Shown piece after piece: positions 7,809 through 49,637 of a stretch of DNA of 64,000 nt. The translations under genes were made by a program, and so were the position numbers. Position 1 is the stretch's first letter. Each line of letters starts with the position of its first letter. The notes under the pieces are model-generated. The model did no database searches. It was not told where the DNA came from and saw only the letters and a program-made list of their open reading frames with translations. Source of the DNA: Minisyncoccota bacterium (GTDB lineage: Bacteria; Patescibacteriota; Minisyncoccia; Minisyncoccales; CG1-02-41-26); NCBI GenBank assembly GCA_028718785.1, contig JAQULB010000003.1:8788-72787 (forward strand), read 5' to 3'.

Positions 7809-7811
7809 AAA

Positions 7812-8919: not shown

Positions 8920-8920
8920 A

Positions 8921-14842: not shown

Positions 14843-14920
14843 TGTTACGTTCCACCTTGACAAATCAGGTTTGCCTGCCTTTCTCATTGTAGCAAGCGCC
14901 CTGATTTGTCAAGGTCGGAG
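14843..14920. repeat. Perfect 15-bp inverted repeat CCTTGACAAATCAGG / CCTGATTTGTCAAGG separated by 30 bp (copy of the recurring operator-like motif)
   Basis: 14855-14869 and 14900-14914 are exact reverse complements. The flanks match the motif copies at 10704-10799 and 12410-12450. Confidence 0.65.
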
Positions 14921-18594: not shown

Positions 18595-19683
18595 ATGAGT
18601 ATTATAGATACTTATTCAAAAGCTGGGGTTGATACGGAACAAGAAGAAAGTTCTATGTCTGGTTTGATTAATCACGTGAAAAGGACATGGCCTTTTTCAG
18701 GTGACATCGCAAAAGTGAAGTTAGATATAGGTTTTTTTGCCAATGTTTTAGATATTGGCAATGGTATTGGTCTTGCTATATCAGCCGATGGGGTAGGAAC
18801 AAAAATACTTGTAGCCCAAATGATGGATAAGTATGACACTGTAGGTATAGATTGTATTGCTATGAATGTTAACGACATTCTTTGCGTTGGGGCAAGGCCT
18901 ATTACAATGGTTGATTATATAGCTGTGCAAAATGCTGATCCTTGGTTACTTAACGAAATCGGAAAGGGGCTTTATGAAGGCGCAAAAATAGCGAATGTAA
19001 ACATACCTGGTGGAGAGTTAGCACAAGTGAAAGATATGATAAGGGGACCAAGAGAAGGCTTCGGATTTGATCTTGTAGGTATGTCTGCCGGAATAGTACC
19101 CATTGATAAACTTATTGTCGGAGAAGATTTAAAAGACGGGGATGTTATTATTGGTATAAAAAGTAATGGGATACATAGCAATGGCCTAACATTAGCTCGC
19201 AAGGTTCTTTTGGAGGAGGCAGGTTTTTCGGTAGGCAAATATATAGACGACCTAGGAACTACTCTTGGAGAAGAGCTTCTTAAACCAACCCACATTTATG
19301 TTAAAGAGGTCCTAGAGATAATCGAGTGTTGCAAAAATGTAAAATCGCTAATTCATATTACAAGTGATGGCTTTCTGAATTTGCCAAGAGTTAAGTCTAA
19401 TGTGAGCTATATTATAGATAACCTTCCCGATATACCTCCGATCTTTAACCTTATTCAAAATTTAGGTGAGGTCCCTGATGAAGAAATGTTCACTGTTTAT
19501 AATATGGGAATAGGTTTTTGCGTAATTGTAGCGCCAAATGATGTGGATCAAGTTTTTTCAATACTTAAGAATAATAATCGGCAGGCGTACAAAATAGGCT
19601 ATATTGTTGGTGACGGAAAAAGCCAAGTGACAATTAATCCCAGGGGGTTAATAGGTAGTGGAAAACGATTTCACAAATTTTAG
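18595..19683 (+). CDS. PurM-like protein (AIR synthetase family)
   Basis: ISADGVGTKILVAQMMDKYDTVGIDCIAMNVNDILCVGARPI closely follows the PurM signature DGVGTK...GIDLVAMCVNDL. The size (362 aa) fits. No other purine-pathway genes are nearby. Confidence 0.7.
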   Translation: MSIIDTYSKAGVDTEQEESSMSGLINHVKRTWPFSGDIAKVKLDIGFFANVLDIGNGIGLAISADGVGTKILVAQMMDKYDTVGIDCIAMNVNDILCVGARPITMVDYIAVQNADPWLLNEIGKGLYEGAKIANVNIPGGELAQVKDMIRGPREGFGFDLVGMSAGIVPIDKLIVGEDLKDGDVIIGIKSNGIHSNGLTLARKVLLEEAGFSVGKYIDDLGTTLGEELLKPTHIYVKEVLEIIECCKNVKSLIHITSDGFLNLPRVKSNVSYIIDNLPDIPPIFNLIQNLGEVPDEEMFTVYNMGIGFCVIVAPNDVDQVFSILKNNNRQAYKIGYIVGDGKSQVTINPRGLIGSGKRFHKF

Positions 19684-25303: not shown

Positions 25304-26563
25304 ATGACATCTAAAAATACACAGCAGATACTGACTGGATGGGAAGAAGCCACTTTGGGGGATTATATTTCTATTAAGCATGGCTTTGCATTTAAGGGAG
25401 AATATTTCTCCGAACAGGAAAATGAAAATGTATTATTAACGCCGGGAAATTTTAATATTGGAGGAGGATTTAAAGCTGATAAATTGAAGTATTATATAGG
25501 CTTGTTTCCAGAAGAATACATTTTGCATGCCGGCGATTTAATAGTTACAATGACTGATCTAAGTAAAGATGGTGATACTCTAGGTTATCCTGCAAAAGTC
25601 CCGCATTATGAAAATAAAAACTTTTTACATAATCAACGAATAGGGCTTGTTCAATTCAAACGCAAGGATCTTGATAGAGACTTTTTATACTATCTGATGT
25701 GTACAAGAAATTACCAAAAAAATATTGTAAATTCTGCATCAGGAAGCACTGTACGGCATACGTCACCCGATAGGATTAAAGAATATAAGTCTTTATTTCC
25801 ATCTTTTCCCGAACAACGAGCTATTGCGTCCGTGCTTTCTGCTTTTGATGATAAGATTGAACTTTTACGGGAGCAGAATAAGACGTTGGAAAGTATCGCC
25901 CAAGCACTATTCAAGCGATGGTTTGTGGATTTTGAGTTCCCTAATGAGCAAGGCAAGCCCTATAAATCAAGCGGTGGCAAAATGATTGACTCTGAATTGG
26001 GAGAAATCCCAGATGGGTGGAAAGTAGGGGGATTGAGGGATATTATAAATATTTATGATTCTAGGCGTATACCATTATCAAGCGAGCAGAGAGCAAAAAG
26101 AAAAGGAAAATATCCATACTATGGGGCTACTGAGGTTATAGATTATATTGATGATTATTTATTTGAAGGCATTTATCTTTTACTTGCCGAAGATGGCTCT
26201 GTTATAGATGAAGAAGGATTTCCTGTTCTGCAATATGTTTTTGGACAGTTTTGGGTCAGTAACCATGCTCATGTTATACAAGGTAAGCAAGACATATCAA
26301 CTGAATATCTTTATCTTCTTTTTAAGCAAACCCCGGTTTCTGGGATTATTACAGGCGCGGTACAATTAAAAATAAACCAAGAAAATCTATTATCACTAGA
26401 AGTTATCATACCAGAAAAGCAAACCTTAAAAGTATTCAATAGTCTTATGGATTCTATTTTCTCTAAGGTTAGAGCTAATATTCTTCAAATTCAGACTCTT
26501 TTTCAACTCCGAGATACTTTATTACCAAAGCTTATGCGTGGTGAAGTGAGAGTGAAGCATTAA
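25304..26563 (+). CDS. hsdS: Type I restriction-modification system specificity subunit (two target-recognition domains)
   Basis: Position between hsdM and hsdR. Repeated conserved spacer-like segments (…LFKRWFVDFEFPNEQG… and …LPKLMRGEV…). Size 419 aa. Confidence 0.75.
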   Translation: MTSKNTQQILTGWEEATLGDYISIKHGFAFKGEYFSEQENENVLLTPGNFNIGGGFKADKLKYYIGLFPEEYILHAGDLIVTMTDLSKDGDTLGYPAKVPHYENKNFLHNQRIGLVQFKRKDLDRDFLYYLMCTRNYQKNIVNSASGSTVRHTSPDRIKEYKSLFPSFPEQRAIASVLSAFDDKIELLREQNKTLESIAQALFKRWFVDFEFPNEQGKPYKSSGGKMIDSELGEIPDGWKVGGLRDIINIYDSRRIPLSSEQRAKRKGKYPYYGATEVIDYIDDYLFEGIYLLLAEDGSVIDEEGFPVLQYVFGQFWVSNHAHVIQGKQDISTEYLYLLFKQTPVSGIITGAVQLKINQENLLSLEVIIPEKQTLKVFNSLMDSIFSKVRANILQIQTLFQLRDTLLPKLMRGEVRVKH

Positions 26564-26573: not shown

Positions 26574-27419
26574 ATGGCAAATATGTCAAATAATGATAAA
26601 ACAAAGCTTGAGGCTCTGTTCGGAATGCGCAGCGGGTATGTCTTGGATTTTTCAGGCAACACTTTCCAAGATTTTATCCATGACAGCACTGGTTTAGATA
26701 TTTTTGATTCGAAGTATAATCATTTTAGTGGTTCTAAGGCAAATAGGCTTCGTGCTTTTTGGCAAAAGGAATCAGATAACATAGTTGGGAAATTAATTGC
26801 AGACCTATTAGAATATTGGAAAACACAAAAGGAAGTAAAAGGTAATGAAATAGAGGAAATTGAGCAAAAGCTTTATGGCGATTGCATAAATATTTCAAAA
26901 AGATTACTCGGTGAAAGACAAGAGTATATCGATCAGCAAAATGTTACCGAAGATGATTTTCTCAATAAGGAATTCCAAGAAATATCTTTAGAGAAACTCG
27001 GTTTAGAAAGTGTATTTACTAATGTATTGAATCAGAGAATGGATGAAATAAAGAGGTGTCTGGGTGCAAAAGCATCTTTGGCTGCGATTTTCCTATGTGG
27101 AAGTATACTTGAAGGTATATTACTGGGTTTTGTGATAAAGAAACCAGAAGAATTCAATCGAGCAATCCTTAGTCCTAAAGATAAAAATGGCAAAGTGTTA
27201 CAATTTCATGAATGGAAGCTAAGTAGTCTTATAGATGTTTCCCATGAAGTAGGTTTACTTGGGGATGATGTAAAGAAGTTTAGTCATGCCCTACGCGAAT
27301 TTAGGAATTATATCCATCCATACCAACAAGCTAGTTCAGGGTTCAATCCTGATGGGCATACTGCCAAAATATGTTGGCAAGTACTCAAGGCTGCGATTAG
27401 CGATTTATCTAAGGTATAA
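26574..27419 (+). CDS. HEPN-like (Abi-type RNase-like) protein embedded between hsdS and hsdR
   Basis: C-terminal HALREFRNYIHPYQQ resembles the HEPN R-x-x-R-N-x-x-x-H motif of Abi_2-like proteins. It sits in the position that anticodon nucleases occupy in prr-type loci. Confidence 0.35.
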   Translation: MANMSNNDKTKLEALFGMRSGYVLDFSGNTFQDFIHDSTGLDIFDSKYNHFSGSKANRLRAFWQKESDNIVGKLIADLLEYWKTQKEVKGNEIEEIEQKLYGDCINISKRLLGERQEYIDQQNVTEDDFLNKEFQEISLEKLGLESVFTNVLNQRMDEIKRCLGAKASLAAIFLCGSILEGILLGFVIKKPEEFNRAILSPKDKNGKVLQFHEWKLSSLIDVSHEVGLLGDDVKKFSHALREFRNYIHPYQQASSGFNPDGHTAKICWQVLKAAISDLSKV

Positions 27420-27425: not shown

Positions 27426-30400
27426 ATGACCAAAATATTTGAATCTGACATCGAAAAATTGGTATGCGAACTCCTCGGAGAACAGGGCTACACTTACCTT
27501 TCTCCAGAAGCCCAAGAAGCCGAACGCCAAAGTCTAGGTGATGTTTTGCTATTGAATCGCCTCAAAAATGCTATTGATAACATAAATCCCAAAATACCAC
27601 AAGAAGCGAAAGAACAAGCCCTCCGACAAGTCCGCAATCTCACAACTCAAAACTTGATAGACAATAATGAGTCCTTCCATCGAATGTTCACCGAAGGGGT
27701 AGAGGTTGAGTATATGGGCGAATATGGCATAAAAGGCGATAAAGTTTGGCTGATTGATTATGATAATACTGAGAATAATGAGTTTTTGGTCTGCAATCAG
27801 TTTACAGTCATGGAGAACAACATTACCAAACGCCCTGATGTTGTTTTGTTTATTAATGGTTTGCCACTTGTGGTTATTGAACTAAAGAATCCCGCCGATG
27901 AGAACGCAACCGTACATAAAGCATTTACTCAGCTTCAAAATTATAAAAACGCCATCCCGAGCCTTTTTCATTACAATAGCATTTTAGTTGCTTCTGACGG
28001 CTTTGACGCTACCGCAGGCACGATCTCATCTGATTTCTCAAGGTTCTTGGCTTGGAAATCAAGCGATGGCTCAAAAGAGGACAGCATGACCATTCCACAA
28101 ATTGAAACGCTCATCAAAGGGATGCTGAAAAAAGAGACGTTGCTTGACCTGATCCGTCAATTTATCGTGTTTGAAAAATCCAGAAAAGAGGATCTAGAGA
28201 CAGGGCTAACTTCGGTTGTCTCCATCAAGAAAGTTTCCGCTTATCATCAATATTTCGCAGTTAATAAAGCTGTTAGCTCAACTATCCAATCCACAAGTGA
28301 ATATGGTGACAGAAAAGCAGGTGTAGTCTGGCACACACAGGGAAGCGGAAAATCGCTTTCCATGGTGTTTTATACTGGAAAGGTAGTTTTGGCGCTTAAT
28401 AATCCGACTATCGTTGTAATAACCGACAGGAACGACCTTGATGACCAGCTTTTTGATACTTTTGCCAACTGCAAACAGCTATTAAGGCAGGACCCGGTTC
28501 AGGCGGAAAATAGAGAACACCTGAAAAGCTTATTGAAAGTTGCCGGCGGAGGGATCGTGTTTACCACGATTCAGAAATTCTTTCCTGAGGATGGTTCTAG
28601 TAGTTATGATCTCTTATCAGAAAGAAAGAACATTGTGGTTATCGCCGATGAGGCGCACCGAAGCCAATATGGCTTTGGCGCAAAAACGATCTATGACAAA
28701 AATAATGGTGTAAGGACGACTTATGGATTCGCTAAATACTTGAGAGATGCCCTGCCGAAAGCCTCTTTTATTGGTTTTACAGGCACACCTATCGAGAAAG
28801 AGGACGCTTCCACACCGGCGGTATTTGGCAATTACATTGATATTTACGATGTAGCTAGGGCAGTAGAAGATGGGGCGACTGTTCGCATTTACTATGAATC
28901 AAGGCTTGCTAAAGTCCACCTAAAGCCAGAGGAGAAAGCGAAGCTTGATGAAGAGGTAGAATCTATCACTGAAGGTGAGGAAAGCACAGCTAAAGAGAAA
29001 GCAAAGGCAAAATGGGCGCAACTTGAAGCTATTGTTGGACATAAAGACAGGTTGCGTATTGTTGCTGGTGACATTATAGACCATTTTGAGAAACGACAGG
29101 AAGCCTTTGATGGAAAAGGCATGATCGTCTGTATGAGCCGAAGGATTGCAGTTGAACTGTATCAGGAAATCATCAAGCTAAGACCAGATTGGCACGACAA
29201 GGACAAGAAAAAGGGAGCGATTAAGGTGGTAATGACTTCCGCTTCTTCCGACCCCGAAAGTTGGCAGATGCACAATACTACCAAGCAGGATAGAAAAGAG
29301 ATCGGCGAACGGTTTAAAGACCCTAACGATCCTCTGAAGCTCGTTATTGTCCGTGATATGTGGCTGACTGGATTTGATGTGCCTTGCTTACATACGATGT
29401 ATGTTGATAAGCCCATGCGTGGACACAATTTAATGCAGGCTATCGCTAGGGTTAATCGTGTTTTCAAGGATAAACCGGGCGGACTTGTAGTTGACTATAT
29501 AGGGATTGCGTCAGATTTGAAGATGGCTTTGGCAACTTATGCCGCAAGTGGAGGACAAGGCTCACCGACCCTTGACCAAGAAGAAGCTGTGGCAACAATG
29601 CTTGAGAAATACGAGATTGTCGTTCAGATGTTCGATCAGTTTGATTATACAAAGTATTTTTCAGCGACGACTCAACAGAAGCTCACTATCATTTTAGAAG
29701 CACAGGAATATATTTTAAGCTTAGAAGATGGCAAAAATAGGTTCATAAAGCAGGTCAATCTATTATCCAAAGCATTTGCCCTTTCCGTTCCACATCATAA
29801 AGCGATGGATATTAAAGATGAAATAGGGTTCTTCCAAGCGATAAAAGCCCGATTAATAAAATTTGAAACGACCGGAACTGGCAAATCCGACCAAGATATT
29901 GAAACAGCTATAAGGCAGATTGTGGATAGAGCAGTTGTAACCGAGGGGATCGTTGACATATTTGATGCGGCAGGTATTAAAAAGCCTGATATTTCCATAC
30001 TTTCTGATGAATTTTTGGCAGAGATTAAGGACATGAAGCGAAAGAACATTGCCTTGGAACTTCTGAAAAAGATTCTCAATGATGAGATTAGACTGCGAAT
30101 GAGAAAGAACTTTATCCAAAGTAAAAAGCTTTCAGAAATGCTCGAAAATGCCATAAAAAGGTACCAAAATAATCTTTTAACGACCGCTCAGGTGATCGAA
30201 GAGCTTATAAAGCTGGCTAAGGAAATAAGGGAATCGGACATGCGTTTGCATGAATTGAACCTTTCCGAAGACGAGATCGCATTTTATGACGCTTTATCTA
30301 ATAACGACAGCGCCAAAAAGGTTTTAGGCGATGACGCACTTCGGGATTTAGCAAGGCTTTTGGTCCAAAAAGTGAAGGCGAACACTTCAATAGATTGGAC

Positions 30401-30545
30401 TATAAAAGAAAGCATTCAAGCGAAGCTTCGGGTCATTGTCCGCCGAACACTACGCCAATACGGTTATCCACCGGATCAACAGTTATTAGCTACTGAGAAT
30501 GTGTTGAAACAGGCAGAACTTTTCGCGGATGATTGGAGTGATTAG
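27426..30545 (+). CDS. hsdR: Type I restriction enzyme R subunit (helicase-nuclease)
   Basis: 1039 aa. SF2 motifs HTQGSGKS (Walker A) and [12 protein letters not shown] (DEAH). N-terminal nuclease region. Confidence 0.85.
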
Positions 30546-30664: not shown

Positions 30665-31819
30665 ATGCATAATAATTCACAGACTATAAAGCCTCGAGTT
30701 TTTGTGAGTTCTGTTCTAGAGGGTTTTAAAGAATACCGAGAGGTAGCCCGTCAGTCTATAATTAATATTGGAGGAGAGCCGATACTTGTTAATGAGGACT
30801 TTCCATCGTTAATAAGTTCATCAAGGAATGTTTGCTTGGATGCAGTTGATAGCGCAGATGCTCTTGTTGTGATTGTTGGTGAACGCGGTGGATGGAAAAC
30901 CCCATCAGGAAGATTAGTTATTGAAGAAGAATACGATCGAGCACGTTATAAAAAACTGCCCATACTTGTTTTCATTCAAGATATAAAACGTGAGCCAGAG
31001 GCACAGAGATTTACGAATGAAATATCTGATTACATTGATGGGTTATTCCGGGTTACTTTTCGATCACCAGTAGAACTTAAGGCTGAAATAGAAAAGGCTC
31101 TAAAATCATTATTCCCCGTCTTAAAGGTGAAAGCTATGGATGATCATTTATTGATACAATTTTTAAAAAATCCTTATTCTGTCGCAAATGAAGCAAGCGT
31201 GCGTTTTATTATTGCTCCGGAACGAGATGAAGAGGTTATCGATCCTGTTGTTCTTGGGTCAGAAGATTTTGTCGAAACAATACTTGAGTTAGGGCATTCA
31301 AAGAAAGTCAGAATTTTTGATTATTTAAGACCAAAAAAGCATTGGATTGATGGGCAATCGCTATTTATTCATCAATTTGACCCATCAGGATTAAGAAAAG
31401 AAACTGTTAACGAAGTACGTCTGGAAATCTTAGAATCAGGTTTAATGATCATTGATTCAAATGTTACCTGTCGCGTGATTAGAGGGCAACTACATTCTTT
31501 GTTAGACTCTTGTGTTGTTGCAGAGGAAGATATTAGAGCAGTATTAAATACTTGCTTTCAATTTACAGGTGCTTTGTTTGATTCTATCGATCAGTTTAAA
31601 AGACATAATCGCTTTATGTATAATGCTGCATTAGTGAATATAGGAACTCGTGTATTAGTCAAGGAACCCAAAGAGCAAAATTCCTATTCTCTCAACATGC
31701 CAGGTCATAATCAACCCATTATTGCATTTGATAGTCCACGTTTATTGATACGATCTGATCTTATGCTTCCTAAAAATGAGATAGAAAGAGCGATTGTTAT
31801 TTTTTCACGCAAAATCTAA
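30665..31819 (+). CDS. DUF4062-like N-terminal domain protein (defence-island-type), with a C-terminal domain of unknown function
   Basis: N-terminal RVFVSSVLEGFKEYREVARQSIINIGGEPILVNEDFPS...DALVVIVGERGGWKTPSG fits the DUF4062 pattern (kVFiSSt...Re...i...gh.pv..e.f.a...cD..v.iig.rYG). Confidence 0.4.
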   Translation: MHNNSQTIKPRVFVSSVLEGFKEYREVARQSIINIGGEPILVNEDFPSLISSSRNVCLDAVDSADALVVIVGERGGWKTPSGRLVIEEEYDRARYKKLPILVFIQDIKREPEAQRFTNEISDYIDGLFRVTFRSPVELKAEIEKALKSLFPVLKVKAMDDHLLIQFLKNPYSVANEASVRFIIAPERDEEVIDPVVLGSEDFVETILELGHSKKVRIFDYLRPKKHWIDGQSLFIHQFDPSGLRKETVNEVRLEILESGLMIIDSNVTCRVIRGQLHSLLDSCVVAEEDIRAVLNTCFQFTGALFDSIDQFKRHNRFMYNAALVNIGTRVLVKEPKEQNSYSLNMPGHNQPIIAFDSPRLLIRSDLMLPKNEIERAIVIFSRKI

Positions 31820-31864
31820 GAATCCCATCTGTTTTGAGAACAACCCGGAGGTTATTGAGTCATT

Positions 31865-32572
31865 ATGATGATTAAAGATATTTATCCACCAATTGAAACA
31901 GCTATGGAATTAGAGCCAGAAGAATTGGCTCCTTTTGTGTTAAAAGATTTAGCAGATCAAAGGAGACTTAATCGGCATAATTTTACTTTAGGAAATAGTC
32001 CTGATTTTATCGAATATGCTGGTAATTATCGGGAGGAATTTTGTAAAAGACTTATGGAAGCTTGGATTTGGCTTGAAAAGGAAATGTTTATTGCACCAAT
32101 GCCGGGCGGTGGTGGCACGGATGAATTCTTTATTACTCGCAAAGGTAAAAAGATTCTTGATGAGCAGAATTTTGAATCATATAAAAAAGCGTCATTACTG
32201 CCATCAGAGAATCTTGACCCAATTTTAGTAAGAAAAGTAAAACCATTGTTTATAAGAGGAGACTATGACACCGCAATATTTCAAGCCTTCAAAGAAGTTG
32301 AAATAAGGGTTAGAGATAAAGCAGGATACACAGATAATGAAATAGGCGTTGCTCTTATGAGAAAGGCTTTTAAGCCAGATAATGGACCTCTTGCAGACCA
32401 GTCTTTAGAAGCTAGTGAAAAGGAAGCGATAGTTGCTCTTTTTGCGGGATCTATAGGCAAGTTTAAGAATCCATCAAGTCATAGAGATGTAGAATATACT
32501 GATCCGGGTGAGGTTGTCGATATAATTCATATAGCGAACCAGTTATTACGAATTTGTGATCGCTGTAGATAA
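31865..32572 (+). CDS. Hypothetical protein, possibly HEPN-like (TIGR02391/Ymh-like) at the C-terminus
   Basis: C-terminal ...FAGSIGKFKNPSSHRDVEY is weakly reminiscent of the HEPN RN..H motif (K replaces R). Low certainty. Confidence 0.3.
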   Translation: MMIKDIYPPIETAMELEPEELAPFVLKDLADQRRLNRHNFTLGNSPDFIEYAGNYREEFCKRLMEAWIWLEKEMFIAPMPGGGGTDEFFITRKGKKILDEQNFESYKKASLLPSENLDPILVRKVKPLFIRGDYDTAIFQAFKEVEIRVRDKAGYTDNEIGVALMRKAFKPDNGPLADQSLEASEKEAIVALFAGSIGKFKNPSSHRDVEYTDPGEVVDIIHIANQLLRICDRCR

Positions 32573-32652: not shown

Positions 32653-34788
32653 ATGCGGAAATCCGAAAAAATGTGTACTAATGAGATAATCAATGCTATT
32701 GAAGATTTGGCGAAGGAACCAGGATTTATATATTCCTTGGCAATAATATTGCAGCGAGACCAATTTTTAGACCCCGAAGAAGTAGCTGATATCAACTGGC
32801 ATGAACGGCTAATTTTCCAAGAGTTATCTTTTTTGGTTGGTCTAATGGTTAAAAATAAAATAGATTATTCTGTAATACCAACAGAAAACACTTTAACTAA
32901 TCAAATCAATAGGACTTATGAATTATTTCAGAAGTTGCATGAAAATCATTTGGCAATATTTGCGGATAAGCTTTCGAAGAAATATAAACAAAGTGTAGAG
33001 GATCAGAATGCTGAGGATAATTATAAAGATTTCATGGGAAACGGGGAATTAATGGCAGAGCCAATTTTTTATGGTGATTCTGGTGCCTATGATTTTCAAT
33101 ATTTGGAATTTGCACAGAAGAAATATAAAAATGACGAAACATGGATATATAAAAATAAAGGTATTACACTATCCATAGTGTCCAATATATATGCAACGTT
33201 AAAGAAACTTAGCGAAGAGAGGTGGCAGAATTTCCAAATACCGGAAAAATTTGAGGAACTCTGCAAGTCATCTCTATCAGTTTTTTGCTTTAACCAAAAA
33301 GATTTGGAATATTTTGATGTTGATGCTGTTAAAAATTTCATCAAAGCTTTTTCGGTAATTCCTGGTACTGTTAATCAAAATCTGAATTCTGTTGGGATGT
33401 ATAATGCTATTGATTCTCATCCTATAGTTACTCTTGCAGAGAATCTTTATTTTTTACCTGTGGGATTCAATTTTTCGCGATCCATCTACGAAAGTCCTTT
33501 TTACTGGATGAGTGACGATGATCTATATAGAGACACTGCTTTTAATAATAGAGGCGAGTCAGCTGAAAATATTGTCTATGAAATTTTGGAAGATATCTTT
33601 GGGAAGGAAAATGTCTACAAAGAAGTAAAGGTTTGTAGAAACAGGCAAGATTTAACAGATATTGACGTATTGGCCATAGCTGGCAATAAAGCCGTTATTG
33701 TGCAGGCGAAATCAAAAAAGCTTACGGAGCTATCTAAAAAGGGAGATGAGGCAAGGTTAAGAGCAGACTTCAAAGAAGCTGTTCAAAAGGCTTATAATCA
33801 AGGTTTGATCTGTCGTTCAGCAATTATAGACAAGAAAAATGATTTAGTAACAGAAGATGGTAAGAAACTTTATCTCAGTGAATTTATTGACGATGCCTAT
33901 ATTATCTGTATAACACTGGATCACTACCCAGCAATAACTCATCAATCGGATATTTATCTAGAGAAACAGCCACAGGATCCATACCCTTTAGCAATGAGTA
34001 TTTTTGATTTAGACATTATTGCTTTTTACTTAAAAGATCCTTTTGATTTTTTATACTATATAAGGCAAAGAGTTGCGTTAAGCTCTTATTATGAAGCGAA
34101 TTCGGAATTAGTGTTGTTAGGGAGTCATCTCAGACAAAAGCTATTTCCAAATCCTGATGTAGATAGGGAAGCTTTGGACGATGGATTTGCTCAACTAATA
34201 GATGCAAATTTTCCAGCTATGCGTGGTTATCAGCCAAAAACAAGTGCGGTAGAGAAATTACATCATCAATGGAAGAATGAGAAGTTTGAAAAACTTATTA
34301 ACCAGATAAAGGCAATAAAACAGCCGGGTCTTACAGATGCCCTGTTTTTCTTATATGATTTGGCTGGTAAGGGAGCTGATGATCTTATCTCCTGGATCGA
34401 AAAAACCATAGATAAAACCATACAAGATGGACGAATGCATTCTTTATCTATGGGTTTTGAAAACGGGAAAAGTGGAGTTTCTTTTATCTGTTTGCCAAAT
34501 TTTTCGGAAAAAATAAAAACACAGTTGGTGAGTTTTGCTTTAGCTAAAAAATATAAAACAAAGGCTGATATGTGGCTTGGTCTATGCTCTATTGCAGGGA
34601 GTTCTAATATTGTCGATGCTGTAACTTTTAACAATCAACCATGGGTAGAGGATAGCAACCTAGAAGAAATTTCTAAAATTGCTCTAAAAGCTGGTGTAAG
34701 AGCTGATTTGGATATTAAAAAAATCGGCAGAAATGATCCATGTATTTGTGGAAGCGGAAAAAAATTCAAGAAATGTTGCGGTAGATGA
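32653..34788 (+). CDS. Large protein with a PD-(D/E)xK / NERD-like nuclease motif and a C-terminal SEC-C zinc-binding motif
   Basis: ESAENIVYEILEDIF...LTDIDVLAIAGNKAVIVQAKSKK carries an E...D...QxK nuclease-like signature. C-terminal NDPCICGSGKKFKKCCGR matches the SEC-C motif. Confidence 0.45.
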   Translation: MRKSEKMCTNEIINAIEDLAKEPGFIYSLAIILQRDQFLDPEEVADINWHERLIFQELSFLVGLMVKNKIDYSVIPTENTLTNQINRTYELFQKLHENHLAIFADKLSKKYKQSVEDQNAEDNYKDFMGNGELMAEPIFYGDSGAYDFQYLEFAQKKYKNDETWIYKNKGITLSIVSNIYATLKKLSEERWQNFQIPEKFEELCKSSLSVFCFNQKDLEYFDVDAVKNFIKAFSVIPGTVNQNLNSVGMYNAIDSHPIVTLAENLYFLPVGFNFSRSIYESPFYWMSDDDLYRDTAFNNRGESAENIVYEILEDIFGKENVYKEVKVCRNRQDLTDIDVLAIAGNKAVIVQAKSKKLTELSKKGDEARLRADFKEAVQKAYNQGLICRSAIIDKKNDLVTEDGKKLYLSEFIDDAYIICITLDHYPAITHQSDIYLEKQPQDPYPLAMSIFDLDIIAFYLKDPFDFLYYIRQRVALSSYYEANSELVLLGSHLRQKLFPNPDVDREALDDGFAQLIDANFPAMRGYQPKTSAVEKLHHQWKNEKFEKLINQIKAIKQPGLTDALFFLYDLAGKGADDLISWIEKTIDKTIQDGRMHSLSMGFENGKSGVSFICLPNFSEKIKTQLVSFALAKKYKTKADMWLGLCSIAGSSNIVDAVTFNNQPWVEDSNLEEISKIALKAGVRADLDIKKIGRNDPCICGSGKKFKKCCGR

Positions 34789-35501: not shown

Positions 35502-35853
35502 ATGACTAAAAAAGAGACTAGAGAATCTGCGATGGATTTTGTAGAAGAACATGAGAGGAAGCGAGGTACGTTTATACGAAGGGTGGATAAAGATAAGGCA
35601 GAAGTTGGGATAGATATTTTATCTTCGGACAGGAGGATCGAGGTTAAGGGAAGAACAGGTACTGATAACTTTGTTCAGATGAATGATAAAAATGTGGAAT
35701 CCTGAAAACAACATGATAATTTTTGGTTATATATAGTTCATTTTGACAAATATGGTAATCCTAAATTAGCGACTTTGTCAAAAGAGCAGGTCTTGCAAAG
35801 ATGTAAGCCTCTTGAATGGTGGGAAATTCCTTTCAGAAAAGCCGATTTTAAGT
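35502..35853 (+). pseudogene. DUF3883-like (PD-(D/E)xK) domain gene interrupted by an in-frame TGA
   Basis: ...DRRIEVKGRTGTDNFVQMNDKNVES*KQHDNFWLYIVHFDKYGNP... The frame continues 49 codons past the TGA to the TAA at 35853. TGA is used as a stop elsewhere (hsdM, 36128 ORF), so recoding is unlikely. Confidence 0.35.
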
Positions 35854-36127
35854 AAGAAGTATTTTATGTAATAGGCAAAAACTCCATCATTCAAGGGAAA
35901 AAATAAATAGTATAACTTTTTGCTTGACGTTTGTAAATAAACGTGGTAGAAGATTGAGTATCTATATTATTGGAATGTCATATTGATCTCTGTGGCGATA
36001 TTTTAGCTTTCTTTGAAGAGAAAAACAATGATAAATACATGGGTTCTTTTCTTATATCTCGCTTAAAAACTATTTGGTTATATCACACTGTCCGTCTTTT
36101 ATGCATTTAGGGGAAGCCTAATAAACA

Positions 36128-37330
36128 ATGACTACAAACGTAAACAATCCCTTTTCTGCGAGTGCTTCGGTACTTGGTTATATGTATCAAATTCGGTATG
36201 CCTTACTGGAAAGTTTAAAACGATTACGAAAGAGTGAGGAATTCACCGTTTCTATTGAGACGTTAGACGATGTCGCTTTCGAGCCAGAAGGGGAACCAAT
36301 CGAATTATTGCAAACGAAACATCATATTAATCAATCCGCTGACTTAACGGACGCATCCCTAGACTTGTGGAAGACAATTAGGATATGGTGTGAAGGCATA
36401 ATTAATAATACTATTCCAAACGATGCCTTGTTTTTTCTGATCACCACAGCACAAGCGGCTGGAGGCAGTGCTGCTTTCTACCTCAAAACAGGTGAACCAC
36501 AGGACGCAGATAAAGCTCTTGAGCGATTAGTATCCACTGCTGAATCATCGACAAGTTATTCTTTACATCCTGCCTTTACCGCGTTTAAAAGATTAAATTA
36601 TGAGCAAAGAAAACAACTGGTTCAAAATGTGATTTTGGTTGATTGTGCCCCAACAATCACAGACCTTGATGTTGCGCTCAAAGAAGCGGTGTTTGGCTTT
36701 ACTGACAAACAATTCCTTGATTCATTTCTTCAGAGATTTGAGGGTTGGTGGTATCGTCGGTCAATAAAGCATTTAGCTGATGATCAAACTCAGCCAATAC
36801 TCAGCGAAGAATTAGAAGCCGAGGGGTCCCGCCTGCGAGAACAGTTCAAATTGGATTCCTTACCTATTGACGATGACATCATGTCTGCCAGCGTAGACGC
36901 TTCTGGATATGAAAATAAGGTATTTGTTCAACAGCTACGCCTTATTGAAATTGGCAACCCACGTATCCTACATGCAATTCGGAATTACTTCAGAGCCTTT
37001 GAGCAAAGATCACGATGGATACGAGAAGACCTTATTCTCGTTGGGGAACTTGATCGCTACGAAGACAAATTGGTGGAGGAATGGGAAATCTACTTTGAGC
37101 AAATGCGAGATGAAATTGGAGACGACGCAACAGAGCAGACCAAGAAAGAAGCAGCCCAAGCTCTATATAAATGGGTGGAGACCGGTTGCCATCATACAAT
37201 CCGACAAGGCGTTACAGAGGCGGCTATTTCACGCGGTTCTTATCAGATACTTTCTGACTGTCAAAAAGTCGGTTGGCATCTCAACTTTGCTGAACGCATA
37301 CGGCAGATTTTAGAGAGTAAGGAGACCTGA
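36128..37330 (+). CDS. Lamassu/ABC-3C effector-like protein (LmuA/DdmA-like, possible Cap4-type nuclease domain)
   Basis: First gene of a tightly coupled trio. N-terminal GYMYQIRYALLESL and ETLDDVAFEPEGEPIELLQTKHH are reminiscent of DUF4297/Cap4-type nuclease N-termini. Its stop TGA is 3 bp before the next ATG. Confidence 0.45.
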   Translation: MTTNVNNPFSASASVLGYMYQIRYALLESLKRLRKSEEFTVSIETLDDVAFEPEGEPIELLQTKHHINQSADLTDASLDLWKTIRIWCEGIINNTIPNDALFFLITTAQAAGGSAAFYLKTGEPQDADKALERLVSTAESSTSYSLHPAFTAFKRLNYEQRKQLVQNVILVDCAPTITDLDVALKEAVFGFTDKQFLDSFLQRFEGWWYRRSIKHLADDQTQPILSEELEAEGSRLREQFKLDSLPIDDDIMSASVDASGYENKVFVQQLRLIEIGNPRILHAIRNYFRAFEQRSRWIREDLILVGELDRYEDKLVEEWEIYFEQMRDEIGDDATEQTKKEAAQALYKWVETGCHHTIRQGVTEAAISRGSYQILSDCQKVGWHLNFAERIRQILESKET

Positions 37331-37333
37331 TTT

Positions 37334-37831
37334 ATGAAGCCTTGGTCCGAACGTTCCATTGAGGAAGCCAACCTTTTGAATCCAGCCTTCTGTTGCGCAG
37401 CTCTGGCAATGTCAATTGCTGGATATTCCGGTGTTAATGATGCAGGTATGCCATATCCATTGACCTTTATGGTTTTGCCAATCGTTCTTCACAAACAAAC
37501 ACGAGAAAGTCTTCCGCCATCTACGAGGACATCGCTTGCGGTTTGGATGCAAAATAACGCCGATGCCAAGGTTCTTTATGCGGAAAGATTGTTGTCACTA
37601 AAACCTTATACTCGAGAAGCAATCCAATTCGGACTGCTTTATGATTGGATTGCGCTACGTCATGGTTGGTTAGTGCAAACTACCTTTGAGGAGTCTATAT
37701 CAGCTCGAATACTTCAAAATCTCGATAATGAAGCAAAGGATTGTGTGTCTCGTGCAAAGCTTGTCGGGAAATGGTTTGCTTTGGCAGGATCGGCTCAAAC
37801 TGTAATGAATTTGTGGGGAATCCGTATATGA
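37334..37831 (+). CDS. Small middle component (LmuC/DdmB-like) of the trio
   Basis: 165-aa ORF wedged between the effector and ATPase genes. Its stop overlaps the next start (ATGA). Confidence 0.4.
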   Translation: MKPWSERSIEEANLLNPAFCCAALAMSIAGYSGVNDAGMPYPLTFMVLPIVLHKQTRESLPPSTRTSLAVWMQNNADAKVLYAERLLSLKPYTREAIQFGLLYDWIALRHGWLVQTTFEESISARILQNLDNEAKDCVSRAKLVGKWFALAGSAQTVMNLWGIRI

Positions 37832-39783
37832 GTTTTCAAATATCGGATATTATTCTTTACGGCTTTAATGGACAGAAACGCGTAATCACTCTCCGTACCG
37901 GACAGTTGAATATCATCACAGGTGCATCTAAAACTGGCAAAACGGCACTTATTGAGATCATTGACTACTGTCTTGGTAGCGATGAATGTAGAATCCCCGC
38001 GGGAATTATTCGCAAAGCTGTTGAGTGGGTTGGTGTACGTCTCCAGATAGAAGCAGGTCAGGCATTTGTTGCACGGCGTTTGCCAGGTCCTGGTCGGAAT
38101 GCCTCTTCCGATATTTTCTATGATGTTCGTAACTTCATTGAAATACCTGAGCGAGTTGAATTAAGGCAAACAATTAATGATGTAGCATTAAGAGCTATTC
38201 TCTCTCAATATGCAGGAATAGGAGAAAACATTCATTATCCACCGGAAGGAAATAATAGACGTTCGTTGACAGCCAATATCCGTCATGCACTTTACTTTGC
38301 ATTCCAGCAACAAGCCGAGGTATTAAACAATCGCCTCTTGTTTCATAATCAGGGCGAACCATTTATCCCACAGGCTATCAAGGATATACTTCCGTATTTT
38401 CTTGGAGCTGTTGACGACGACTATGTTGCTAAGGTGACTAAACTACGAGACCTTCGATATAAACTCAGGGGATTGGAACGTAGGCTTTCTGAGTATGAAG
38501 CAGTCCGGGGGGAAGGAGTATCTCTTGCGCAATCTCTGCTTGTCGAGGCAATGGACATCGGGTTGCCTGGAGCGGAAATGCCCGTTGAAGATTGGAATGA
38601 ATGCATTGAGATATTGAAACGTATTCAAAGCCAACCTCCGGAACCAGAAGACGAACTCGCATCTGAAAACAATGCCTACAACCAGTTACGAAGGACAAAG
38701 TTGGAATTGGAAAGCGAGTTGCAACGAGTCAAATCTCAGATGCAGGCAGCAGAAGCATTGAACTCAGAAGGACAAGGATATTCTCATGAAGCACAAGCCC
38801 AATTGCATAGACTTCGGAGTATTGAACTTTTTGAAGAATCTGAACAAGGCGTTCCAAGATGCCCATTATGTGAATCTGAACTTTCTAATGTTTCGTTACC
38901 AGGATTAGAGCAAATGCGCCAGTCTGCCCAATGTTTAGATTCGCAGATTCGGACAATTGAAGATCGTTCTCCGCAAATGAATGAAGTAGTGAGAAAGTTA
39001 CGTGGACGATTCGATGATGTAAAACGGCGTTTACACGAAAACCGTGAAGAAATGGATGCAATCCAAGCTTCGGATCGTCGCCTTCAAGGCATGCGTGACC
39101 GTTCATCTCGACGTGCTCATATTCTTGGTCGAATCAGCCTTTACCTTGAAAGCCTTCCTCATATTGAGGATACAAGTGAACTAAAGCTGGAAATCGCGGC
39201 ATTGCAGAGCAAAATCAGTGGGCTTGAAAAAGAATTAAGCGATGCCACTGTGCAAGAACGGTTAGATTCAATCTTGTCAATCTTAAGCCGTGATATGAGT
39301 CAATGGGCATGTGAGTTGCAGTTAGAACACTCAAAATTCCCATTGCGACTCGATTTAAGGAAACTAACAGTGGTCGCTGATACAGCAGATGGTCCCATCC
39401 CCATGAATCAAATGGGAAGTGGAGAAAATTGGGTTGGCTATCACTTGATCGCGCATTTTGCCTTACATAAATGGTTTGTGAAGAGAGGTCGACCACTGCC
39501 CCGCTTTATTTTTATTGACCAACCATCCGAAGTGTATTTCCCTGCGGATCAAGAAGTGAATGGTGGCAGAATAGACGGTGAGAATGAAGACAGGAAAGCT
39601 GTTGCACGTATGTATAAATTAGCACTAGACGTTGTAAATAATCTGTCTCCAGAATTCCAAATCATAATGACAGACCATGCCGACCTCGCTGAAAAATGGT
39701 TTCAAGATTGTATTATAGAGCGTTGGAGGGACGGAATTAAATTGGTACCTGAATCATGGATACCAGGAGATACCAAAATTTGA
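37828..39783 (+). CDS. SMC/RecF-like ABC ATPase with a long coiled-coil insert (LmuB/DdmC-like, DUF3732-type)
   Basis: N-terminal Walker A ITGASKTGKTALIEI. About 300 aa of coiled coil (...LESELQRVKSQMQAAEAL...EIAALQSKISGLEKELSD). C-terminal Walker B/D-loop RFIFIDQPSEVYFP. Start reassigned to the ATG at 37828, which overlaps the upstream stop. Confidence 0.6.
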   Translation: MSFQISDIILYGFNGQKRVITLRTGQLNIITGASKTGKTALIEIIDYCLGSDECRIPAGIIRKAVEWVGVRLQIEAGQAFVARRLPGPGRNASSDIFYDVRNFIEIPERVELRQTINDVALRAILSQYAGIGENIHYPPEGNNRRSLTANIRHALYFAFQQQAEVLNNRLLFHNQGEPFIPQAIKDILPYFLGAVDDDYVAKVTKLRDLRYKLRGLERRLSEYEAVRGEGVSLAQSLLVEAMDIGLPGAEMPVEDWNECIEILKRIQSQPPEPEDELASENNAYNQLRRTKLELESELQRVKSQMQAAEALNSEGQGYSHEAQAQLHRLRSIELFEESEQGVPRCPLCESELSNVSLPGLEQMRQSAQCLDSQIRTIEDRSPQMNEVVRKLRGRFDDVKRRLHENREEMDAIQASDRRLQGMRDRSSRRAHILGRISLYLESLPHIEDTSELKLEIAALQSKISGLEKELSDATVQERLDSILSILSRDMSQWACELQLEHSKFPLRLDLRKLTVVADTADGPIPMNQMGSGENWVGYHLIAHFALHKWFVKRGRPLPRFIFIDQPSEVYFPADQEVNGGRIDGENEDRKAVARMYKLALDVVNNLSPEFQIIMTDHADLAEKWFQDCIIERWRDGIKLVPESWIPGDTKI

Positions 39784-40019
39784 AAATTATCATCATTTGT
39801 GTTTTTGTTTTTGAAAAAATGGCTTATTTAAAAATCCACTAAAAGTATATACTTTGGAGATATGTTCTCACCTGATGCTACTTATGTGACATTATAAGAC
39901 TGAGCGAAATGGCCCATTTTTTGCTTTACAAGGATGGCAATTTATGTTACAATACGCCATAATATGAATATGAACGTTCAAATAGCGTTCTAATAGCATT
40001 CTATGAACGCTTTTTATTT

Positions 40020-41324: not shown

Positions 41325-43406
41325 GTGAGAGTTATCAGAGACCCTATTCATAAATACATTTCGTTAAGTGATTTGGAACTTGAAATTATTGAAACACCTT
41401 ATTTTCAGCGTCTGCGTTATATCAAACAAAATGCAACTGCTTATCTTACTTATCCTACTGCTGTTACTAGCCGATTCGATCATAGTTTAGGCGTAATGCA
41501 TATTGCAGGTAGGATGATTAGTTCCGCTCTGGAATTGAGTGCTCCAAAAGATATTAAAAATTTCTTTATTAAATGCAAGGGTGATTTTGGCAAAGAATAT
41601 AGCAAATTAAAAGATGAGCAACTTAAATATATAATTATTTCTTTAGTTCGCTTACTTGGATTATTGCATGATATTGGTCATCTGCCTTTTTCCCATACGG
41701 GTGAAGATGCGATAGATTTTCCTGATTTTTTAAGGTTGATATATAGAGAAGATGAGCATAAGGAAATAATATATTTGCATAACCAATATGGATTGCATTT
41801 GCATGAATATAATACCCTCAAAATTATTGAGAGCGAGTCTATGCGTGGAAAATTTCAATCCGTTAAAGAAGACTTGTTAGGAAAGAAATTCAAGGACAAA
41901 TGTTATATATATGATTTAATACTAATGACTTTAGACCCAAGAAAAAGGAGAAAATTTAGTGTATTTGAGACATTAGTACAAATTGTTAGTTCCAATCTGG
42001 ATGCTGATCGTGCTGATTTTTTGCTTCGTGATGGAACCATCAGTGGAGCTGGTTTCGGTGCATATGACATAGATCGTTTTATAACAACACTTAGGTTATT
42101 CAATCGCAAGGAAACAAAGGAATTCCTAATACGCCCATTATTTACTGGAATCAGTGCTATAGAGACGATGCTAATTGAACGCTATAAACTATATAAGTGG
42201 CTATATTTTCACCACTATGTTGTTTTTACTGATATGGCTGTAGAAAAACTGATTAAATCAATGCTTAAAGCAGTAGTGATAGATTCAGATTTTGCTGAAA
42301 GATTGGATATTGATATTAAACGGTTTCATTATGCTAATTTTGTTAAAGATGGTATATTTCTTGATGATACTTATATTTGGCATAAATTCAACAAATTCCT
42401 ATATTTGTTAGAAAACGAGCGAAAAATAGCAAGAGAAAATTCCAATGATTTGTCCAAAGGACTTTCATTATTCACTATAAATTTAGATGTGCAAAACATT
42501 ATAAATGAGTTAAATTCTGGGCAATTAAAAAGCCTACGGGAGCAATTTAAAGATGGAGATATTTTATCTTCCAATAGTATAAAAGTCTATACTCCTATAG
42601 AATTAAAAGAAACATGGTTGGTAATTCATGAAAGTGATGAGGAAACAGAATACAAAGTTTTGTGTGTAATCAAAAAAGAAGAGGATAAGTTATGCGTTTA
42701 CGATCCAAGATACAAACTGATCCCTCTCGAAAAGCGAGATAAAGATATAGCAGTAAGTCTTCTCCGTATCGTTTTACACAGGCGTAAGTTGGGTAGTGCA
42801 TTGTGGAAGGACACCCAGCAATATAAAGAGGTTAATAGAGATATAAAAAGTGTGATTAGGGATGCTTTCGAAAAGAAATACTGCAAAAAATATCCTAGTC
42901 AATCAGAAACAAGCTTTGATGATGAGTTTGAGGAAAGGATTAAAGAAGGTACATTTATACTTAACTATTTTGCGGAATTTTTTCCTTCCGACAAGAAGGA
43001 ATTGATTAATGATGTTGAAGAAAACTGGCTTAATAAAACTAACCAAGACTGCCACTTATCCATTCAAATTAAGCGATTCAAACCATACGGGGATTATGAA
43101 ATTATAACAAGAAAAAACGATTTAACTACGCTTAATGAGTGTTCTGAAATCGTGCAAGGGTTGGATGATGCTTGGAGTAAAGATGTTCATATGTATTTAT
43201 TTTTATTCTTTTTCGACAATTTTACTAGAGTGGCAACTGGAATAAAGATGGGGCAAATAAAGAAAGCTATGATAAAGACTTTCGCTAAATCGCTAGGTAG
43301 CTGGTACAAAGATGCCAAAGCAATGAAAAACGTTTTGTGGAAAACAGACATGTTACCTAAAGAAACAAATACCCAAATTAAGGATAAAGCAAAAATTGAA
43401 GATTAA
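41325..43406 (+). CDS. HD-domain dNTP/dGTP triphosphohydrolase-like protein with a long C-terminal extension
   Basis: RFDHSLGVMHIAGRM ... LLHDIGHLPFSHTGE is the dGTPase-type HD signature. At 693 aa it is much longer than housekeeping Dgt. Confidence 0.6.
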   Translation: MRVIRDPIHKYISLSDLELEIIETPYFQRLRYIKQNATAYLTYPTAVTSRFDHSLGVMHIAGRMISSALELSAPKDIKNFFIKCKGDFGKEYSKLKDEQLKYIIISLVRLLGLLHDIGHLPFSHTGEDAIDFPDFLRLIYREDEHKEIIYLHNQYGLHLHEYNTLKIIESESMRGKFQSVKEDLLGKKFKDKCYIYDLILMTLDPRKRRKFSVFETLVQIVSSNLDADRADFLLRDGTISGAGFGAYDIDRFITTLRLFNRKETKEFLIRPLFTGISAIETMLIERYKLYKWLYFHHYVVFTDMAVEKLIKSMLKAVVIDSDFAERLDIDIKRFHYANFVKDGIFLDDTYIWHKFNKFLYLLENERKIARENSNDLSKGLSLFTINLDVQNIINELNSGQLKSLREQFKDGDILSSNSIKVYTPIELKETWLVIHESDEETEYKVLCVIKKEEDKLCVYDPRYKLIPLEKRDKDIAVSLLRIVLHRRKLGSALWKDTQQYKEVNRDIKSVIRDAFEKKYCKKYPSQSETSFDDEFEERIKEGTFILNYFAEFFPSDKKELINDVEENWLNKTNQDCHLSIQIKRFKPYGDYEIITRKNDLTTLNECSEIVQGLDDAWSKDVHMYLFLFFFDNFTRVATGIKMGQIKKAMIKTFAKSLGSWYKDAKAMKNVLWKTDMLPKETNTQIKDKAKIED

Positions 43407-43472: not shown

Positions 43473-44180
43473 TCAAATTTGAATATTGTACTGTGCCCAC
43501 GGGTATAGCATATTATGGCCTCCAGCTATGGCAATTTCCATGCCTCGCTTGGCATGGCTTTGACCCTGTATCCAGTGCCACTGAATTTCAAAGTTATTAT
43601 TTATTTGAAAATCGTTTGTTTCTGTTTCAAAGGGTTTTATATCAACCCGGCCATCAAGGTAAGATAAGGTTTGTTGAAGATTTTCAACTGGAATAATTTT
43701 TATTTTATTTTGAGGGCTCAACAAGTTGGCAACCGAGGCCTCTTTGGCGTTTTGAGCGGGTAAAATAATTTCTTCAAAGTTATTTTCTTTAGCTAATAAA
43801 GCAAAAGAAAAAGCTCCTTTTATGGGCTTTAGTTCTGCGTTTAACGCTAACTCTCCAAGAATTAATTTTTTATTGGGAACAAATTTTGTTTGTTGAGTGG
43901 CCAATAGATAGGCCAAGGCAATTGATAGATCAAAATGGCTGCCTTCTTTTTTTAAATCCGCTGGGGATAAATTAACAACCACTTTTTTTGTTTGAGAAGT
44001 GGGGGAAGAGAGACAAATATTTTTTATGGCTGAGGCCACTCTTTCTTTGGCTTCTGCGATTGATTTATCAGCCAATCCCACAATAATAAAATTTCTCAGA
44101 CCTTGATTAACCGAAACTTCCACTTCAATAAGGGTTGCGTTTATTCCCCACAAAACGGCTGAAAAAGTTTTAGCAAACAT
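43473..44180 (-). pseudogene. comM: comM/yifB (Mg-chelatase-like competence ATPase) N-terminal fragment, truncated just where the AAA+ domain begins
   Basis: MFAKTFSAVLWGINATLIEVEVSVNQGLRNFIIVGLADKSIAEAKERV is a YifB N-terminal Lon-like domain. The ORF ends ...IQGQSHAKRGMEIAIAGGHNMLYPWAQYNIQI*, immediately after the GGHN that normally precedes the Walker A. The composition shifts at this point. Confidence 0.6.
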
Positions 44181-46772: not shown

Positions 46773-49457
<2,685 letters not shown>

Positions 49458-49463
49458 ATTTTG

Positions 49464-49536
49464 TGAGCAGGGAGGGAATCGAACACCTCGTCTTCCATTA
49501 TGTAATAATGGCGCTCTGCTACTGAGCTACCCGCTC
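49464..49536 (-). tRNA. tRNA-Val (anticodon UAC), with a one-nucleotide bulge in the T-stem
   Basis: Reverse complement GAGCGGGTAGCTCAGTAGCAGAGCGCCATTATTACATAATGGAAGACGAGGTGTTCGATTCCCTCCCTGCTCA. The acceptor, D and anticodon stems pair. The T-stem GAGG(T)G/CCCTC needs a bulged T. Confidence 0.55.
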
Positions 49537-49637
49537 AATTTATTAAATTATTTGTTTGTCGGGCCGTGGAGATTTGCACTCCAGCTAAATCTTCCCGAAA
49601 GACTCGTGCTACTGTTAACACTACGGCCCGTTTTACG

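Follow-up and report, generated by a model that had tools for sequence, protein, structure and literature searches.

The 64,000-nucleotide stretch of DNA analysed here (the window; contig JAQULB010000003.1 of assembly GCA_028718785.1, positions 8,788 to 72,787 of the forward strand) comes from a Minisyncoccota bacterium and carries, at window positions 36128-39783 on the plus strand, an operon that we identify with high confidence as an intact short type II Lamassu system (ABC-3C) with a Cap4-type nuclease effector. The operon includes lmuA (36128-37330), coding for an effector of 400 amino acids (aa); lmuC (37334-37831), coding for a middle component of 165 aa (MC3, NCBI name DUF6521); and lmuB (37828-39783), coding for a 651-aa SMC/Rad50-like ABC ATPase of the short Lamassu type. 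All three genes start with ATG, the start of lmuB being the in-frame ATG at 37828, and they are co-directional and tightly linked in that order. The lmuA/lmuC junction reads TGA TTT ATG at 37328-37336, i.e., a spacer of 3 nucleotides (nt), and the lmuC/lmuB junction is a 4-nt ATGA overlap at 37828-37831. An initial annotation, made from the letters alone, had described three genes of about 400, 165 and 650 aa with ATGA and TGA-N3-ATG couplings; these lengths and junctions are found in the sequence, as are the motifs that it quoted (GASKTGKT at LmuB residues 32-39, FIFIDQPSEVYFP from LmuB residue 560 and GYMYQIRYAL at LmuA residues 17-26). In GenBank, the three Lamassu proteins are the records MDD5738689.1 to MDD5738691.1, named hypothetical, DUF6521 family and DUF3732 domain-containing, respectively. 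A 134-aa open reading frame (ORF) in another frame within lmuA (36909-37313) is taken as spurious.

The proteins were compared with Pfam, PADLOC, NCBIfam and the PDB, the last both with the single sequence and with a profile of homologues. The matched PDB entries are Lamassu complexes of Salmonella enterica (9HQU, 9HQX, 9HR5) and of Vibrio cholerae (9NXX, 9NY1, 9NY5, 9NYG, 9UXH-9UXL). LmuA matches the Pfam family CTD7 (E = 1.1e-43, 148.8 bits, cutoff 27.6) and the PADLOC model of LmuA (E = 1.3e-66); in the PDB, the single sequence finds 9hqu_C (E = 4.6e-12) and the Vibrio LmuA (E = 4e-7), and the profile aligns with 9nxx_A over its full length (E = 5.9e-27). LmuC, the component whose presence between lmuA and lmuB defines a type II system, matches Pfam MC3 over its full length (E = 4.8e-45, 153 bits, cutoff 23.2), PADLOC LmuC (E = 9.2e-17) and, by single sequence, the chain 9hqu_D (E = 6.4e-7); its profile matches the LmuC chains 9hqu_D (E = 2e-11) and 9ny5_C (about 1e-11), also over the full length. 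For LmuB, the PADLOC model gives 478 bits over the full length (E = 2.2e-143), and the single sequence aligns end to end with 9hqu_A (E = 1.7e-69) and 9ny5_D (E = 1.5e-62), the former reaching E = 8e-94 with the profile. The Pfam family DUF3732, which the initial annotation had proposed as a check of LmuB, is matched at E = 6.3e-54 (182.8 bits, cutoff 25). The three proteins are thus members of the Lamassu family, in line with the earlier Lamassu/DdmABC-like interpretation, and the domain class, a Cap4 N-terminal domain fused to CTD7, with MC3 and DUF3732 partners, is the same as in DdmABC and in the Salmonella LmuACB.

The effector consists of an N-terminal nuclease domain of the Cap4/DUF4297 PD-(D/E)xK type (about residues 14-243), placed by AlphaFold, Foldseek and the profile, and a C-terminal ABC-3C CTD7 sequestration/tetramerisation domain (residues 266-390), placed by Pfam. 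A Cap4/DUF4297-type nuclease had been suggested, with uncertainty, in the initial annotation, which proposed a hidden Markov model (HMM) of the DUF4297 type as a check. The Pfam Cap4_nuclease match stays below its cutoff (21.6 bits vs. 26.2, E = 2.7e-4), and the fold was therefore tested directly by structure prediction. In the AlphaFold2 model, based on an alignment of 41 homologues, the N-terminal domain has a predicted local distance difference test score (pLDDT) of about 77-93 over residues 14-243. A Foldseek comparison of the model to the PDB places LmuA chains at the top (E = 1e-11 to 1e-6), followed by the Cap4 proteins of CBASS (6WAM, 6VM5 and 6VM6, at about 4e-4), and then by Hachiman HamA, the Avs3 nuclease and DUF4297. 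The putative active-site residues E44, D47, D48, Q62 and K64 (36257-36319, plus strand; motif IETLDDV...LQTKHH) are at least 97% conserved in 74 genome relatives and invariant in two curated alignments. K64 aligns with K68 of the Salmonella enterica serovar Tennessee (SalEnt) LmuA, the residue replaced by Ala in 9HQX and reported as the catalytic lysine (Li et al., doi 10.1101/2025.03.14.643221). Together with the profile match to solved LmuA structures, these results bear out the earlier suggestion, and the N-terminal domain is predicted to have the Cap4/DUF4297 nuclease fold.

The motifs expected of the ATPase are intact, and their conservation was scored in an alignment of LmuB with 25 diverse relatives. 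The Walker A motif GASKTGKT (37921-37944, plus strand, as for all motifs of this protein; residues 32-39) includes the ATP-binding lysine K38, which aligns with K40 of the SalEnt and Vibrio LmuB; G32, G37 and K38 are invariant. The central coiled coil aligns over its full length to the solved LmuB structures and has at its apex the zinc hook CPLC (38860-38871; C345 and C348), aligned with CPMC of 9hqu_A, in which C345, P346 and C348 are invariant. The ABC signature MGSGENW (39412-39432; residues 529-535) is invariant throughout, its S531 corresponding to S536 of SalEnt. The deviant Walker B motif FIFIDQ (39505-39522; residues 560-565), followed by PSEVYFP, is part of a conserved F-x-F-x-D564-Q565-P-S region with F560, F562, D564, Q565 and S567 invariant, and the same holds for D616-H617 of the H-loop (39673-39678). 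Short Lamassu systems have a Walker A motif Gx4GK[S/T], an LmuB of about 600-650 aa, a CxxC zinc hook in zero, one or two copies, and a Walker B consensus hhhhD[Q/S/T/E] (Haudiquet et al., PMC12663957); with 651 aa and hhhhDQ, the protein is therefore a short LmuB as defined there. The zinc hook is needed for defence by the SalEnt Lamassu (Li et al., doi 10.1101/2025.03.14.643221). Thus, all the residue classes found essential in published Lamassu studies, namely the nuclease lysine, the Walker A lysine, the signature serine and the zinc hook, are kept in this copy.

The structure of the operon is conserved among its relatives. A scan with one genome for each GTDB species gave 217 relatives, the best 80 of which belong to Thermodesulfobacteriota, Planctomycetota, Nitrospirota, Latescibacterota, Pseudomonadota, methanogenic archaea and others; there is no genome of the candidate phyla radiation (CPR) among these 80. 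The lmuA-lmuC-lmuB order holds for all listed loci whose flanking sequence is long enough. The 4-nt lmuC/lmuB overlap is found in 72 of the 75 scorable loci, and a 4-nt lmuA/lmuC overlap in 66 of the 75, the present copy having the 3-nt spacer instead. Judged from the same gene order across many phyla, the three-gene arrangement is not due to chance. The Lamassu family is abundant: among the candidates scored in a wider protein database, there were over 1,400 relatives of LmuB and over 1,500 relatives of LmuA.

A second copy of the cassette, with 95.7% nucleotide identity, is present on two other metagenomic contigs (L084, 7091-10962; L085, 1-3795). The shared stretch is exactly 35913-39786, beginning 215 base pairs (bp) 5' of lmuA and running 3 bp beyond the stop codon of lmuB, such that the non-coding leader upstream of lmuA (35913-36127, plus strand) is conserved with the genes. 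The second copy is flanked by an Eco57I-like methyltransferase upstream and by an N6_N4 methyltransferase/DpnII-type restriction-modification (R-M) system downstream; the flanks of the two copies are unrelated, and the boundaries of the similarity are sharp. These alignments show a self-contained module, made of the cassette and its 215-bp leader, that moves between unrelated defence islands. The ratio of nonsynonymous to synonymous substitution rates (dN/dS) between the two copies is 0.24 for lmuA, 0.49 for lmuC and 0.30 for lmuB; the cassette is therefore under purifying selection. A ribosome-binding-site-like GGGGAAG lies about 12 nt before the lmuA ATG, and the leader presumably holds the promoter, the 5' untranslated region and the ribosome-binding site.

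A mechanism can be proposed by homology to the solved complexes (9HQU, 9HR5, 9NY5 and 9NXX), for which three independent structural studies arrived at the same model (PMC12663957; doi 10.1101/2025.03.14.643221; doi 10.1101/2025.06.23.660979). By analogy, two LmuB protomers, joined by the zinc hook and folded back, would act with LmuC to bind one LmuA through its CTD7 (A1B2C1), and this sequestration would keep the nuclease monomeric and inactive. The LmuB heads and LmuC would sense free ends of double-stranded DNA, or abnormal replication structures of phage or plasmid origin, and the complex is expected to have a slow, DNA-stimulated ATP turnover. Released LmuA would form a tetramer by way of CTD7, and the paired Cap4 domains of this tetramer may cut DNA with little sequence specificity (a degenerate preference), leaving 1-nt 3' overhangs. 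The outcome would be death or arrest of the infected cell (abortive infection) or plasmid elimination.

Among the characterised systems, LmuACB of S. enterica serovar Tennessee (9HQU/9HQX/9HR5; doi 10.1101/2025.03.14.643221) has the same gene order and domain class and gives the top PDB match of LmuB and of LmuC. For LmuA, this is the case by single sequence only, since the Vibrio LmuA 9nxx_A scores slightly better with the homologue profile. The SalEnt LmuB resembles the LmuB described here in having one CxxC zinc hook and a D-Q Walker B motif, and the key residues correspond as K68 to K64 in LmuA and as K40 to K38 and S536 to S531 in LmuB. The relationship is distant (238 bits for LmuB; about 19% identity for LmuA in structural alignment), and the hosts are an enterobacterium and a CPR bacterium, respectively.

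The DdmABC system of V. cholerae El Tor (Lamassu Vc-Cap4; Haudiquet et al. 2025, PMC12663957) has the same three-component architecture with a Cap4 effector, and all three of its proteins align over the full length with those of the window, including a short LmuB with the hhhhD[Q/S/T/E] Walker B. K57 of the Vibrio LmuA corresponds to K64 here. The Vibrio LmuB has no zinc hook (PMC12663957), unlike the invariant CPxC here. A strict orthologue of DdmABC was considered and rejected, given the distance (LmuB 215 bits, LmuA E = 4e-7) and the presence of the zinc hook; by sequence comparison, this copy is DdmABC-like but not a DdmABC ortholog. In Vibrio, DdmABC is located on the VPI-2 island, whereas the present copy is located in a comM-inserted island of Pacebacteria. 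The CBASS Cap4 and DUF4297 proteins (6VM5, 6WAM, 7YIB; HerA-DUF4297 8ZIR) share the PD-(D/E)xK fold and the D...QxK pattern (Foldseek 4e-4); in Cap4 of CBASS, cyclic oligonucleotides switch the nuclease on via a SAVED domain, whereas LmuA is fused to CTD7 and, by analogy, would be controlled by sequestration on an SMC-like complex. SbcCD/Rad50-Mre11, the proposed evolutionary source of Lamassu (PMC12663957), shares the ABC head, the antiparallel coiled coil with a CxxC zinc hook and the recognition of DNA ends; compared to it, the coiled coil of LmuB is much shorter, the Mre11/SbcD partner is missing, and the Walker B motif has D-Q instead of D-E.

It should be noted that several observations weigh against the assignment to a working Lamassu system. 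The identity of LmuA to characterised systems is modest (about 17-19% in structural alignments), and the CTD7 part of the LmuA model is poorly defined, with low confidence. Promoter and terminator scans gave no signal over the shuffle expectation. Four residues form the 5'-phosphate pocket of the Vibrio LmuB, namely K55, R152, K174 and H180 (PMC12663957); in pairwise HMMER alignment, only R152 is identical here, and K55, K174 and H180 are replaced by E53, N174 and I180, the consensus of the clade at position 174 being K. The exact chemistry of DNA-end recognition may therefore differ from that in Vibrio; as evidence on DNA-end sensing itself, the mismatch is inconclusive, and we do not take it as an argument against such sensing. 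Furthermore, the defence function is attributed to this copy by analogy with homologues outside CPR, the neighbouring defence genes and the purifying selection giving it supporting context.

Two other readings of the same genes place the ATPase outside of Lamassu, and both are highly improbable. The ATPase could be a housekeeping repair SMC-like protein of the SbcC/Rad50/RecN type, with unrelated neighbours: the NCBIfam Rad50, SMC and RecN models match it at E = 8e-4 to 0.08, some of the JGI homologues are annotated as "SbcCD ATPase subunit" or "RecN", and Lamassu is thought to be derived from SbcCD (PMC12663957). However, the NCBIfam matches are confined to the coiled coil (about residues 220-487) and reach 12-17 bits compared to cutoffs of 400-1000 (Rad50 16-17 vs. 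700-1000; recN E = 0.076), whereas the LmuB-specific model gives 478 bits; no PDB chain of Rad50, SbcC or RecN was found at E <= 0.01, even with the profile, and no Mre11/SbcD gene adjoins lmuB. The gene is also fixed in an operon with the CTD7 and MC3 partners across the related loci and lies in an inserted island that is missing from a close relative, which leaves a repair ATPase with hardly any probability. The initial annotation had regarded grouping of the ATPase with RecN/SbcC, or a first gene devoid of an effector fold, as evidence that would overturn Lamassu; recN and Rad50 match as just described, and the LmuA model has a Cap4-type fold. Equally negligible is the chance that the operon is another SMC/ABC-ATPase defence system that resembles Lamassu, such as Wadjet/JetABCD, Gabija, PARIS/AriAB or Septu. 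The PADLOC models of JetC, GajA, AriA and AbiLi do match (E = 1e-5 to 1e-2), but these matches are local, confined to the Walker A region or to the coiled coil, with 13-23 bits (JetC 13-15, in the coiled coil) compared to 478 for LmuB; no JetA, JetB, JetD, GajB or AriB partner gene is present, and the partners that are present, MC3 and CTD7, are specific to ABC-3C/Lamassu.

A different possibility is that the cassette is Lamassu by descent but a decaying or silent passenger, non-functional in this CPR host. Gene debris in the island (a 67-aa NOV_C fragment at 35502-35705 and a truncated comM), N174 in place of the clade-consensus K at a DNA-end contact position of Vibrio, the 3-nt spacer instead of the usual lmuA/lmuC 4-nt overlap, and the outcome of the promoter scan are consistent with decay. 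Conversely, all three ORFs are full length compared to their homologues, every catalytic and structural motif tested is intact, and the dN/dS values of 0.24-0.49 relative to the close copy indicate purifying selection. The GC content at third codon positions (GC3), which is near that of the host core genes, suggests long residence in low-GC genomes, and independent assemblies of two sequencing runs gave the same sequence. A silent passenger is thus improbable, and an intact short Lamassu system is the preferred reading.

The polynucleotide phosphorylase (PNPase) of the window shares 100% identity with a protein from a Candidatus Pacebacteria metagenome-assembled genome, and its relatives are Patescibacteria, which agrees with the remark in the initial annotation on a reduced-genome host; the GenBank records of the three Lamassu proteins belong to the same metagenome-assembled genome. 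The remark on a mobile element is likewise borne out by comM, which is interrupted here and intact in a related Pacebacteria genome, GCA_964948515.1 (L086), where a 511-aa ComM is located directly beside nusA. To the right of the cassette there are an HD-domain protein, the truncated comM and then the core genes nusA, yraN, tgt, cca and pnp. The truncated comM (43473-44180, minus strand; 235 aa) has the Pfam ChlI domain and only the start of Mg_chelatase, and marks the right-hand junction of the island; E. coli YifB matches it over residues 13-214 only, and only residues 1-224 of the L086 ComM match the window, the homology ending at about 43506-43512 (codon 224 or so). A tblastn search of the whole window with YifB and the L086 proteins as queries did not find the 3' half of comM, LysM/M23 or ksgA. 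Since the window contains neither this half of comM nor the two genes that come next in L086, the data point to a cassette within a comM insertion with a length of 43.5 kb or more, or within an insertion that later underwent a deletion. A direct-repeat search gave no convincing att pair for the island. Two independent Logan assemblies join the cassette to the truncated comM, one of them reaching the start of nusA; a chimeric contig is therefore unlikely. The interruption of comM and the second copy in another island together argue for mobility of the cassette. Recent transfer was also considered from base composition: the overall GC of the cassette is raised (0.43-0.44 vs. 0.37-0.40 in core genes), but its GC3 is host-like (0.34-0.38 vs. 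0.31-0.36 in host core genes), so that composition does not show a recent transfer.

The cassette is accompanied by other genes of the defence island, namely a type I R-M system, a DUF4062/Ymh pair, an HD protein and a SEC-C protein. The type I R-M system is complete and lies on the plus strand (hsdM, 23075-24631; hsdS, 25304-26563; a 281-aa ORF, 26574-27419; hsdR, 27426-30545). Directly 3' of hsdR, on the same strand, two genes (30665-32572) code for a DUF4062 protein of 384 aa and a Hypoth_Ymh/TIGR02391 protein of 235 aa. The latter has weak PADLOC similarity to PD-Lambda-3_B and to a HEPN model, and the two may be an uncharacterised defence pair. The following 711-aa protein (32653-34788, plus strand) has a C-terminal SEC-C zinc motif as its sole family match, and its central stretch DIDVLAIAGNKAVIVQAKSKK resembles a PD-(D/E)xK motif; on this resemblance, it is a candidate novel defence nuclease. 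The 67-aa ORF at 35502-35705 (plus strand), just upstream of the Lamassu leader, covers only part of a NOV_C domain (NO VEIN C-terminal, restriction-endonuclease-like) and is probably a gene fragment. On the other side of the cassette, the HD-domain protein (41325-43406, plus strand; 693 aa) is weakly similar to dGTPases, including anti-phage models, in its N-terminus only (E = 1e-7 to 6e-5, far under the cutoffs).

The left part of the window contains a plasmid-like or integrative and conjugative element (ICE)-like module (4757-10636, plus strand), which consists of four 22-nt-spaced iterons TAATATAGTTATTTGACAACAGTAA (4757-4859) upstream of RepA (5056-6486, plus strand), a Replic_Relax relaxase (6921-7808, plus strand) and a TrwB/VirD4-type coupling protein (8834-10636, plus strand). 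A tyrosine integrase (17061-17744, minus strand; GC3 0.59) and a second coupling protein (21537-22901, minus strand) follow. A purM equivalog (TIGR00878, 350 bits; 18595-19683, plus strand) with host-like GC3 lies between these two genes; purM is unexpected for a CPR genome, and its presence inside leaves it uncertain whether one element makes up all of the 43 kb. A pair of amidoligase_2 and class-II glutamine amidotransferase genes (12642-14632, plus strand) is clearly foreign DNA, with GC3 of 0.53-0.56 vs. about 0.33 in the host. A strong hairpin with a 19-bp stem (14851-14918; DNA fold -21.9 kcal/mol, z = -6.8) lies between convergent genes and could be a terminator or a recombination-site-like repeat; its arm sequence recurs partially at 10710-10798 and 12414-12446, at cassette-like gene boundaries. 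Among the core genes, a 414-aa alanyl-tRNA synthetase-like ORF (48213-49630, minus strand) with a weak tRNA-synt_2c match is found, together with tRNA-Val and tRNA-Pro, between tgt and cca; these are not in the syntenic region of L086.

The operon is an ordinary, intact example of a well-studied anti-phage and anti-plasmid defence family with solved structures and a known mechanism, and it raises no new mechanistic question; only the CPR host and the comM-inserted defence island are modestly unusual. A more far-reaching scenario, which we consider doubtful although less remote than the rival readings above, is that Lamassu rides on a large conjugation-related integrative element with an integrase, a relaxase, coupling proteins and a RepA preceded by iterons. 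This element would have disrupted comM in ultra-small episymbiotic Pacebacteria and would be what Lamassu mainly serves, with a DNA-end pocket unlike that of Vibrio. If so, Lamassu would keep out competing plasmids and ICEs, or DNA entering the cell, in a lineage that is believed to rely on taking up DNA, and the E53/N174/I180 pocket might give a different trigger specificity.

The finding is of use chiefly for annotation, as the records MDD5738689.1 to MDD5738691.1 can be labelled LmuA, LmuC and LmuB. In the literature, we found no dedicated report on Lamassu in Patescibacteria/CPR, and the aquifer defensome paper that covers CPR (PMC12259885) does not mention Lamassu in its main text. The operon is a documented case of an SMC-based abortive-infection system in a streamlined-genome CPR bacterium, and as such it agrees with the picture drawn in that survey, in which CPR genomes have few defence systems, yet at high density (PMC12259885).

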